In this document: piece by piece, positions 13,887 to 28,928 of the stretch
Layout: each line of letters begins with the position of its first letter
Numbering within the stretch: the stretch's first letter is position 1
NCBI GenBank assembly: GCA_963718515.1
Contig: OY970354.1
Location: 1 to 44,362, forward strand
Direction of reading: 5' to 3'
Length of the DNA stretch: 44,362 bases
Origin: an uncultured bacterium
Lineage (GTDB): Bacteria > Patescibacteriota > Minisyncoccia > UBA6257 > 2-01-FULL-56-20
Notes under the pieces: generated by a model
What the model was told of the DNA's origin: nothing
The model's database searches: none
The model's input: only the letters and a program-made list of their open reading frames with translations
Made by a program: the position numbers and the translations under genes

Positions 13887-16800
13887 TTAGTCACCTATGC
13901 TCCGCAAGTACGCTCTTGTGATGGGCCCGAAATATCCTTGCGCGGGTGTAATGCCCACCGTCGCTTGATATTCCGCAAGCGCAGCCTGCGTGATCAATCC
14001 AAAGTATCCCGTGGCTCCCACATTCGCCAAGGCCGTGGCGTCGGGGCCCACGTCTTTTGTAACGAGAAACTCCTGAAGACTGGTCACGTCTGCGCCGGTG
14101 GAACCGATGGTAAGATCGCGCGGGATTGCTGAAAGTTGGTAAGTTCCACTTTCTCCATTAAGATACGCATCCGTGCTTAATGGAATCGTAATTCCCTGCG
14201 CCTGAGCCTCCTTGAGAAGCGCTTGAAGCTCCGTGATGAGCAGATTAAGAAGCTCTTCCTGCGCTAACGTAGAGGAACCCGAGGTGCTGTTGCTGGAGAT
14301 GACCGTAGAGGTCGCAGATCCCGTTGCGGAAGTAGGAGGGATATAAGAAGCTATGACGCCCGTGCCACCACCTCCCCCACCGCCGCCGCTTGAACCGCCT
14401 CCACCTCCTCCACCCCCTCCGCTTGCCGGCGCGGTTGCCGTAAAGGATTGATCCGCTTCCGAAACGGACGAACCGAATTGTACCGCGAGGTGGAACCAAT
14501 AATTTCCCGCGGACGGCACTGTGGAATTCAGTACGGTATCAAAATTTTGTCCGGGCTGAATAAGTTTTTCATCGGTCGAACTGAAAATACTGCCGGATCC
14601 TCCGCACTGATCCGTTTCGTTATTGGTGACACACCACGTGTACGTATATTCGTACGCGGTGGCGCCTTCGTTGGTGATCCGTACCGCCGTGGAAATAGTT
14701 GGCGTCGTCAAACCCGAGAAACTTTGAATAAGAACCTGCGCCGGCGGTCCAGGCGTTGCGCTTACCGGAGACGTTGCGATCCCTTGTCCAACCGCGTTCA
14801 CCGCCGATACGCGGAAGTCGTAAGAATTGCCATTGGCCAAGCCGGTCACCGTAATATCGGGAGTTGTGCTTGTTCCATCGCTGAACGGCGCCCATGTTCC
14901 TCCGGTCGACAGTTCATATTCAACGACATAATTAGTGATCGCGCTGCTGCCGGTCGAGGAAGGAGCCGACCATGAAAGTGCCACAGCGCTGTCTTCAACT
15001 GTTGCCGCAAGATTTGTCGGCACACCAGGAACTCCAGCCGGCGTCACGGAGTTGCTGGTGCCGGAAACCGTACTTGTGCCGACCGCGTTGGTCGCCGTCA
15101 CGGTAAAGGTATACGCCGTGCCGTTATTTAATCCTGTCACCACGGCGGTGGTGCCGGTCGAGACTACGGAAATATTATTGTTTGATGTGACGGTGTAACT
15201 AATTATTGGACTGCCGCCATTATCTGCGGGCGCAGACCATGCAACCCCTGCACTTTGATTGCCCACTGACGCGGCAACATTGGTCGGCGCATCGGGCACC
15301 GTGGCCGGCGTCACGGAATTCGATGCTGCGGACGCAGTGCTTGTGCCAACTGAGTTCGTTGCCGTGACGGTAAAGGTGTACGGGGTGCCATTGCTCAAGC
15401 CGGTGATCGTGATCGGCGAAGCGCCGCCTGAGGCGGTGAAGTTGCCGACGTTAGAGGTGACAGTGTAGCTAATAATAGAGGAGCCGCCTGTGCTCGTCGG
15501 CGCACTAAAGGTGATCGTTGCTTCCCCGTTACCACCGGTCGCGCTGACGCCGGTTGGCGCATTCGGTGCGGCGGCGGGAACGACAGAATTACTCGTGCCA
15601 GAAAGCGTGCTCGTGCCGACCGCGTTCGTCGCCGTCACAGTGAAGGTGTATGTCGTGCCGTTATTCAATCCCGTCACGGTGATCGGACTGCCAGTGGAAC
15701 TCGCAGTGAATCCTCCGACATTCGAAGTGGCAGTGTAATAAAGGATCGGCGATCCGCCGGTCGACGATGCGGTGAAGGTGATCGTCGCTTGAGCGACGCC
15801 GGCGGTAGCACTCACCGAGATCGGCGCGCTCGGCACCGTGGCGGGAATAATAGAATTACTTGATCCGGAAGAAGTGCTCGTGCCCGCGCCGTTCGTGGCG
15901 GTGACGGTGAATGAATATGTCGTGCCGTTCGTGAGTCCGGTCACTGTAATCGGTGACGCGCCGCCAGTGGCGGTGAAGCCACCAATATTCGACGTCACCG
16001 TGTAGCTTGTGATCGCGGAGCCACCGTTGTTGGCAGGCGCGGTGAACGTTATGGTCGCTTGGCCATTGCCACCGGTTGCACTAATAGAAGTTGGCGCGTC
16101 CGGCATGGTTGAAGGGGTCACAGAATTGCTCGTTCCGGAAATGGTGCTGGTGCCGACCGCATTGGTGGCGGTCACCGTAAACGTATATGTCGTTCCATTA
16201 CTCAACCCGGTTATTGTGATCGGCGAGTTTCCGCCTGTCGCGGTAAAGCCACCAGAATTTGATGTGACGGTGTAGTTCGTGATCGGCGATCCACCCGTCG
16301 ACGACGCAGTGAAGCTGACGGTCGCTTGCCCATTGCCACCGGTCGCGCTCACATTCGTCGGTGCGCTCGGCGTTGTCGCCGGCGTCACCGAGTTGCTCGT
16401 GCCGGAAATCAAACCTGTACCGATTGCGTTCGTTGCCGTTACGGTGAATGTGTATGTTGTGCCATTCGTCAGGCCGGTCACCGTGATCGGACTGCCGGTT
16501 GAACTTGCAGTGAATCCGCCGACATTCGAAGAGGCGGTGTAGTAAAGAATTGCAGAGCCGCCCGTGCTCGACGGTGCGCTAAAACTTATCGTGGCTTGCG
16601 TGCTCGTGGCAACGGCCGTCACACTCGTCGGTGCGCCTGGCGTGGTCGCCGGTGTCACTGAGTTTGATGCCGTGGACGCGGTGCTCGTGCCAACCGCGTT
16701 GGTCGCCGTCACCGTAAACGTGTATGCAGTGCCATTGCTCAAGCCGGTGATCGTGATCGGTGATGCGCCGCCCGTTGCGGTGAAGCCACCGGAGTTTGAT

Positions 16801-28928: not shown

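Follow-up and report, generated by a model that had tools for sequence, protein, structure and literature searches.

The first 44,362 nucleotides (nt) of contig OY970354.1 (assembly GCA_963718515.1), which derive from an uncultured bacterium of the Patescibacteriota and are referred to here as the window, carry on the minus strand three consecutive open reading frames (ORFs A, B and C). Comparison with related loci supports the view that these ORFs are pieces of one gene, predicted to encode a giant secreted, wall-tethered repeat protein. Judged by the same comparison, the two frame breaks within the gene appear to be scars of large deletions, of 604 nt and ~2.55 kb, rather than single-letter errors or a switch acting on translation. 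The original prediction for this locus, made from the letters of the window, had also taken the three ORFs for a single gene, but one of ~15 kb and ~5,000 amino acids (aa) that was interrupted by two single-nucleotide frame breaks.

Reading frames, relatives and deletion scars

ORF A (20757..28928, 2,723 aa) and ORF B (19153..20760, 535 aa) start with ATG, ORF C (13887..19196, 1,769 aa) starts with GTG, and the overlaps are 4 nt for ORFs A/B and 44 nt for ORFs B/C. A stop-codon map places ORF A and ORF C in one frame, since frame 0 stays open over 28928-20759 and reopens over 19217-13889. Displacement is confined to the 1.7-kb middle piece (20895..19153), in which frame 0 has 12 stops, and results from two shifts that are opposite in sign. 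In-frame TGA codons lie at 20898-20896 for the middle frame and at 19217-19215 for the last; upstream of the ORF B ATG the middle frame encodes GGLGGNGGTGG..., and upstream of the ORF C GTG the last frame encodes TDRPTGVTAVATSTQATISF. The true coding text of ORF A ends at E2678 (GAG, 20897-20895), and its final 45 codons are out-of-frame read-through of the next segment (ADLAVTAEPAEHQ...). An AAGGA ribosome-binding site precedes the ORF A ATG. The ORF coordinates, overlaps and in-frame TGA stops given by the original prediction were all verified.

Orthologues with ~50-70% identity, from short-read metagenome-assembled genomes and metagenome contigs, are single unbroken frames with the same domain order, open over at least 3,958 codons in L004, 3,662 in L005 and 3,341 in L047. 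The orthologue obtained by joining L006 and L130 (contig CAZNZK010000001.1), which is ~55% identical, has a complete frame of 6,217 codons. The orthologues run from a signal peptide through an S/T-rich region, a head, ~48 GLUG units, a cap domain (YW.T.TSG...TYPYFNYQ) and an FN3 array to a C-terminal anchor. The three segments of the window are collinear on the L006 protein, with A at residues 63-2598, B at 2796-3395 and C at 4481-6146, which leaves gaps of ~197 residues at junction 1 (between ORFs A and B) and ~1,085 at junction 2 (between ORFs B and C). A metagenome scan with ORF B returned one useful orthologue (L047) and two irrelevant FN3 matches to the out-of-frame tail, and a search of a representative library with the middle segment gave fragments of up to 391 aa and no giant proteins.

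An allele of the gene with only 4-8 substitutions per 10.8 kb relative to the window is found on other contigs, where it has been called as a complete protein of 6,149 aa (the 22.8-kb scaffold_12196, ENA ERZ28653482) and as partial proteins of 4,315+ and 3,829+ aa. Ahead of the called start a further 309 codons remain open, which brings the intact allele to ~6,458 aa (~19.4 kb). The window copy, at 15.04 kb, is ~4.3 kb short of the intact allele, which is the sum of the four losses described below, and the size of ~15 kb and ~5,000 aa given in the original prediction is therefore that of a shortened gene. The assignment of the three ORFs to one gene is upheld, as orthologues and near-identical alleles are unbroken frames that span 3,300 to 6,217 codons and keep the order of the domains. 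Comparison with orthologues had been proposed as a check, and the relatives proved to be continuous over the break points, with none split there.

Homology blocks from blastn against c75387 (ENA contig_75387, rebuilt from L001 and L045) end exactly at both junctions. This contig and L002 (GCA_964521495.1) are riddled with 1-nt indels and were used for structure, not frame. At junction 1, exactly 604 extra nt are present in at least eight contigs (L141/L152, L143/L153, L144, L154, L155, L157), and c75387 has 603 nt there as assembled. The carriers of the 604 nt are 99-99.9% identical to the window on either side of the junction and translate without a break across it (...NSYSETALNITGG...VTGGAGGLGGNGG...), the unbroken reading being ...GVIQSNSYSETALNITGG..., three units and then ...SSVNISVTGGAGGLGGNGGTGG.... 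In the window, ...TCTGAG is joined instead to GCGGACTTGG..., with only AG in common and ~30 nt out of the repeat register. As 604 is 1 mod 3, the frame can formally be regained with one added base. That was the repair suggested by the original prediction, which inserted one A at a point where intact alleles hold 604 nt.

Junction 2 interrupts a GLUG unit partway and continues directly in an FN3 linker; the cap domain that separates the two arrays in all relatives is missing. The relative runs on from the left breakpoint (...NGSAGGAAGAGG...) through a further ~1.2 kb of GLUG units into the cap domain and then FN3 units, and the right flank of the window's junction sits 2,547 nt downstream in c75387, within an FN3 linker (...VPGAPTGVTAVATSTQATISF); in the same contig the GLUG tail, cap and FN3 sequence precede ...PGAPTGVTAVATSTQATISF. 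The deletion has thus taken away the end of the GLUG array and the initial FN3 units, together with the cap domain (YWN.TTSG...YPYFNFQ) between them. The evidence for this junction consists of the error-prone c75387 together with called gene lengths, as the accurate contig loci stop ~66 nt short of it. The called lengths of 6,149, 4,315+ and 3,829+ aa extend at least 500 codons past the left breakpoint, which implies read-through at junction 2. Continuity of the frame requires the true length of this deletion to be 2 mod 3, and the two breaks would then compensate (1 + 2 = 0 mod 3), which accounts for the common frame of the first and last pieces.

Two further segments are missing in frame. 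One is a 531-nt segment present in four of four accurate loci that cover the site, and the other is a length difference of ~651 nt relative to c75387. Four segments have therefore been lost within 2.2 kb, two out of frame (604 nt and ~2.55 kb) and two in frame (531 and ~651 nt), and the two out-of-frame scars give the appearance of three ORFs. Microhomology of 2-7 nt is present at the scars of junction 1, the 531-nt deletion and junction 2. The two breaks are thus not single-nucleotide events, nor do the repeats run straight across the junctions as had been stated, since the fused unit at junction 1 lacks its strand segment and junction 2 joins a cut GLUG unit to an FN3 linker. Coordinates of the scars and of the other features are collected in Table 1.

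Table 1. Positions of the deletion scars, the segments and predicted domains of the giant gene, and associated features in the window
Feature	Position	Strand	Basis or remark
Junction 1, scar of 604-nt deletion (~3 repeat units)	20891..20896	-	Frame shift by 1; microhomology AG
Junction 2, scar of ~2.55-kb deletion	19203..19206	-	Microhomology GCCG; 2,547 nt in error-prone c75387
In-frame 531-nt (177-codon) deletion scar	19385..19391	-	Between CAGGCGG direct repeats
In-frame length difference of ~651 nt in FN3 array	18679..18683	-	Relative to c75387
ORF A, 5' part of giant gene	20757..28928	-	99.9% identical to intact alleles L143/L135/L145
Middle segment, frame +2, GLUG array part 2 (~8 units)	19153..20895	-	100% identical over 1,512 nt to intact alleles
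Last segment, ORF A frame	13887..19214	-	17 FN3 units, conserved beta domain, Gly run, helix, PG_binding_1-like anchor
Signal peptide, 31 aa	28836..28928	-	...LLRASA/DD (MTSSRALRLAIIVSVIFFLSLFSGPLLRASA then DD); from translation; equivalent N-terminus in orthologues L004, L006
DUF11, residues 274-381	27786..28109	-	Pfam PF01345, E = 7.8e-20
Conserved head, all-beta, without Pfam match	26724..27731	-	Kept in P0002-P0007, L004/L006
GLUG/Gly-rich array part 1, ~30 units of ~63 aa	20895..26723	-	Unit listing; Pfam Glug PF07581
PG_binding_1-like C-terminal module	13911..14099	-	Pfam E = 3e-4, 21.4 bits
Shared segment, candidate mobile island (~19 kb)	13273..32030	.	Homology to relatives stops at both ends
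DUF5677 gene	31083..31868		
Large serine recombinase gene	29591..31036		Resolvase + Recombinase + Zn_ribbon_recom
HTH (helix-turn-helix) gene	29228..29527		

Predicted architecture of the encoded protein

The intact protein is laid out as a Sec signal peptide, a Ser/Thr-rich spacer, DUF11, a beta-rich head, ~45-50 GLUG/Gly-rich units, the cap, ~25 FN3 units, a small beta domain and a peptidoglycan-binding tail. In ORF A the Ser/Thr-rich spacer follows the signal peptide, ahead of DUF11. The spacer contains two direct repeats of 187 nt that are ~95% identical (28310..28496 and 28652..28838) and duplicate a peptide block (...SSSTSSTTVASDTDLDVPSSTPATSTPDLAAVTSTPTSTDIIASD...). An antisense ORF of 266 aa (28138..28938, plus strand) lies across the Ser/Thr-rich 5' region and is annotated as a gene in public records of related contigs, with the result that the called start of the giant gene has been moved 309 codons downstream, to an ATG at 28001. 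An AlphaFold2 (AF2) model of the head suggests a beta-sandwich, with a predicted local distance difference test (pLDDT) score of 55 overall and ~70-80 only at residues 40-215. Its top Foldseek match, 1uxx (E = 3.4e-4), points to a weak likeness to CBM6-type jelly-roll modules, which may serve as a lead only.

The GLUG units, about 40 of which are found in the window, follow the pattern YAGGLVGYNtGxIxNSYATGxV with a Gly-rich loop. A 148-aa piece of the array scores above the gathering threshold for PF07581 (28.8 bits against a cut-off of 20.5, E = 1.3e-6), and the full-length Pfam scan missed the family, probably through compositional bias. Modelling four GLUG units with AF2 gave no usable structure (pLDDT 47), and no relative in the PDB was found by sequence. 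A Pfam scan of the giant protein found no protease domain. ORF C contains tandem fn3 (PF00041) in 17 stretches (E = 2e-143). Across 13887..18700 the identity of the FN3 array to contig_75387 is a mosaic in which blocks of 82-91% alternate with blocks of 98-100%, a pattern that points to gene conversion between FN3 repeats or between alleles, or else to a consensus of mixed strains in contig_75387.

As had been predicted, the signal peptide is found only on ORF A and the wall anchor only on ORF C, the anchor module being PG_binding_1-like and below the Pfam cut-off (18.7-21.4 bits for PF01471, with a gathering cut-off of 23). By BLASTP the tail of ORF C matches the C-terminal PG_binding_1 module of the neighbouring gene at 4517..6811 with E = 3e-16. 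The C-terminus of the L006 and L130 orthologue has dockerin-like repeats (DFNHDGRVDAIDFSILL...) in place of the PG_binding_1-like tail, which implies an exchange of the anchor module. Matches to Pfam PF00404 occur in many smaller FN3 proteins that share the dockerin-like tail domain.

The protein may form a long fibre that is tethered to the wall of its own cell through the C-terminus, with the head and the GLUG array facing outward. A plausible role suggested by the domain content is that of an adhesin of a host-attached Patescibacteria cell, or episymbiont.

Origin of the deletions

The favoured reading is that the deletions were made in real DNA by template switching or replication slippage, with about an even chance that they mark a very recent inactivation of the gene in this lineage. 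Signs of recency are the 4-8 substitutions per 10.8 kb relative to the intact alleles and the lack of stop codons in the frames which are now untranslated. The upstream 8 kb of the array, which is equally repetitive, is structurally perfect relative to the relatives. As assembled, the locus yields only a secreted 2,723-codon product that has a signal peptide and neither FN3 stalk nor anchor, and the downstream pieces (ORFs B and C) are without independent start signals.

Several observations weigh against inactivation in the organism and against the reading of the protein that goes with it. Neither junction was found in any other contig or protein of the collections searched. In the same assembly, a 1-nt insertion (an extra G at 34861) splits gatA (33844..35308) into two ORFs, and contig L151 (5,385 nt, run ERR11630394) does not have the extra G, encodes an intact GatA and is otherwise the same as the window in all 5,386 columns of the alignment; relatives likewise have an unbroken gatA. 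An insertion that is missing from an otherwise identical contig shows that errors do occur in the assembly. A single aberrant template molecule or read would also give four losses clustered in 2.2 kb of an otherwise ~99.95% identical allele. As to the protein, the adhesin role and the fibre architecture are suggested by its domains, and both AF2 models have low confidence. A search for junction-specific out-of-frame peptides gave no match, and exact look-ups of ORFs A, B and C and of several versions with alternative starts also gave none, the latter being uninformative on the junctions in other assemblies.

It is possible, with a probability somewhat below even, that the organism's gene is the intact ~6,458-aa allele and that the losses come from one aberrant template, such as a template-switch product of amplification, a rare deleted molecule or a read that seeded the contig. 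All four structural differences are losses, clustered in 2.2 kb; the 604 nt are present in all of the other contigs over junction 1 (at least eight) and the 531-nt segment in all four accurate loci; and the gatA frameshift at 34861 is contradicted by the contig from the same strain and by the intact gene in relatives. The length of the source contig, 829 kb in one piece, points to long reads, and losses this large are beyond repair by consensus polishing. Against such an artefact, junctions 1 and 2 lie out of the repeat register and junction 2 connects unrelated sequence (GLUG to FN3 linker), which a collapse of repeats or a k-mer mis-join by the assembler would not yield. The structural perfection of the upstream 8 kb also speaks against it, as do the two deviant homopolymer lengths of the window, both of which were confirmed by an independent ERR11630394 contig. 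Of the three possibilities offered by the original prediction, assembly error and recent inactivation thus survive, though only as scenarios of large deletion, while frameshifting or slippage is lost for want of a slippery site or tract and through the continuity of the relatives.

The remaining explanations fare far worse than either of these. That the ~5,000-aa gene is otherwise complete and carries two single-nucleotide indels, whether sequencing errors or point frameshifts, is highly improbable. Although a frame is formally regained with one nucleotide more at junction 1 and one fewer at junction 2, and the assembly has one 1-nt indel elsewhere, in gatA, every near-identical allele has the 604 nt at junction 1. 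At junction 2 c75387 has ~2.55 kb of extra DNA, and read-through is implied by the gene lengths of the accurate contigs and by orthologues L004, L006 and L047. The "repaired" units would moreover be aberrant, with NSYSE-GGLGG lacking the strand segment and FN3 not preceded by the cap domain. Regulated expression, through programmed ribosomal frameshifting, slipped-strand phase variation or recombinase-mediated switching, deserves even less credence. The two shifts do compensate to place ORF A and ORF C in one frame, and a large serine recombinase gene lies 660 nt upstream, but neither frame-overlap zone contains an X XXY YYZ heptamer or a homopolymer of at least 4 nt, and no simple-repeat tract was seen in the junction sequences, which were read by eye and not searched by tool. 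The middle segment holds its 12 stops in frame 0, the relatives encode one continuous frame, and the flanks of the four breakpoints have no common motif usable as a recombinase site. Programmed frameshifting and slipped-strand phase variation were accordingly rejected. Equally slight is the prospect that the locus consists of three independent, separately translated genes, and this too was rejected. The ATGA stop/start overlap of ORFs A and B resembles translational coupling, but the ATG of ORF B at 20760 is a conserved internal Met of the repeat (GGLIGRMTGTTQ), which is also found in L047 (GGLVGRMTGTTQ) and is replaced by Tyr-Ile in L004. There is no Shine-Dalgarno sequence or other ribosome-binding site at the GTG of ORF C, promoter- and terminator-like sites inside the locus are at chance level and not enriched, and the signal peptide is confined to ORF A.

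The shared segment, neighbouring genes and known systems

The giant gene lies within a segment that is shared with relatives and also contains the recombinase gene, an HTH gene and the DUF5677 gene. The recombinase, which has the Resolvase, Recombinase and Zn_ribbon_recom domains, stands beside the HTH gene and cargo, and the same trio occurs in L135, L141 and L143. The segment is 97.7-99.9% identical in L135, L141, L142, L143 and L144, and the murD and gatCA genes beside it reach only 74-82% in these contigs. In c75387 near-identity is limited to the first ~10 kb of the giant gene, and pheS, cca and dut are 74-87% identical. The left end of the segment is at 32025-32032 in six contigs and the right end at 13273 in two contigs, with three different continuations. 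No att-type repeats were found at the ends of the segment, which have only a chance 8-mer in common, and no empty site was identified in a relative. Either a mobile island or replacement of alleles across lineages would explain the shared segment, and its presence at the same murD-gatCA locus in several backbones makes allele replacement by homologous recombination an equally good reading.

A broader proposal combines two claims. The adhesin gene would be cargo of a recombinase-linked segment of ~19-23 kb which has recently spread or been exchanged among Patescibacteria lineages whose neighbouring housekeeping genes are 74-82% identical, and the window copy would be a genuine, freshly inactivated allele that arose in one clustered, microhomology-mediated event of multiple deletions. 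Taken together the two are rather unlikely; if true, the window would offer a snapshot of the gain and loss of host-attachment hardware in an episymbiont.

The surroundings of the shared gene vary. At the 3' end of the recombinase gene, at 30959 and 31033, the window has T7 versus T8 and C5 versus C4 relative to most related contigs, and L140 (ERR11630394) agrees with the window; the differences alter the last 5 codons of the recombinase gene and lengthen the ORF by 26 codons. In L135 (JGI Ga0495427_001731, 2605..9673) ~7.3 kb lie between murD and the DUF5677 gene, compared with only 300 nt in the window (31868..32169), and the insert contains genes for Fic, thymidylate kinase, glycosyltransferases, a methyltransferase and two NUDIX proteins. 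On the other side of the giant gene the window has an 8.8-kb block (4476..13272) with two intact giant surface-protein genes (4517..6811 and 6909..12776; Big_7/fn3/PG_binding_1). The block is absent from contig_75387, in which the giant gene is followed directly by tRNA-Met and pheS, and JGI contig L046 continues with a NUDIX gene in its place. Other genes of the window include pheS, cca, dut, murD, gatCA and ligA. The top matches of gatA are to metagenome-assembled genomes of Patescibacteria, which together with the gene content and the 829-kb contig assigns the window to a small-genome member of that group (CPR).

For annotation, the locus should be entered as a single giant gene disrupted by internal deletions, and not as three genes or a gene regulated by frameshifting; a 1-nt "repair" would make a protein that never existed. 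The intact allele, which is equivalent to ~2.3% of the 829-kb contig, defines a family of GLUG/Gly-rich and FN3 fibres with swappable anchors (PG-binding here, dockerin-like in the L006 orthologue) and is a candidate host-attachment structure. The near-identity of the gene on diverged backbones suggests that attachment genes are exchanged between lineages. No literature specific to this protein family or to the island was found. The combination of GLUG/Gly-rich, FN3 and PG-binding parts constitutes a new, uncharacterised giant surface gene in Patescibacteria, present here as a broken copy, and the frame breaks themselves are an ordinary phenomenon.

Repeat proteins with the GLUG motif (PF07581) are large secreted or surface proteins of monoderm bacteria and include those of the streptococcal IgA1-protease/Zmp type. 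The giant protein resembles them in being secreted and in its tandem units with the G-G-L-V-G...N-S-Y-A-x-G signature, but its units have a Gly-rich insertion of 30-40 residues, which gives a 63-aa period, and ~45-50 of them stand in a row. The window neighbours at 4517..6811, 6909..12776 and 37872..42737 (Big_7/FN3/PG_binding_1) share with it a signal peptide, an Ig/FN3 stalk and a C-terminal PG_binding_1 module, and their tails are homologous; unlike the giant gene, they are intact single ORFs and lack DUF11, the head and the GLUG array. Integrative elements with large serine recombinases are similar to the shared segment in that the recombinase is found beside an HTH gene and cargo, with sharp shared boundaries on differing backbones, and differ from it with respect to att-like repeats, none of which were found at its ends. 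Giant, repeat-rich surface genes of uncultivated bacteria and the problems of assembling their repeats were already known (West-Roberts et al., bioRxiv 10.1101/2023.11.21.568195). The present gene is likewise very long, repeat-rich and of an attachment type, and its recovery is hampered by the same problems of assembly in repeats. It differs from those genes in size (~6.5 k aa as opposed to >30 k aa), in its host group (Patescibacteria as opposed to Omnitrophota), in its architecture of GLUG, FN3 and PG_binding parts, and in that the window copy is internally deleted.

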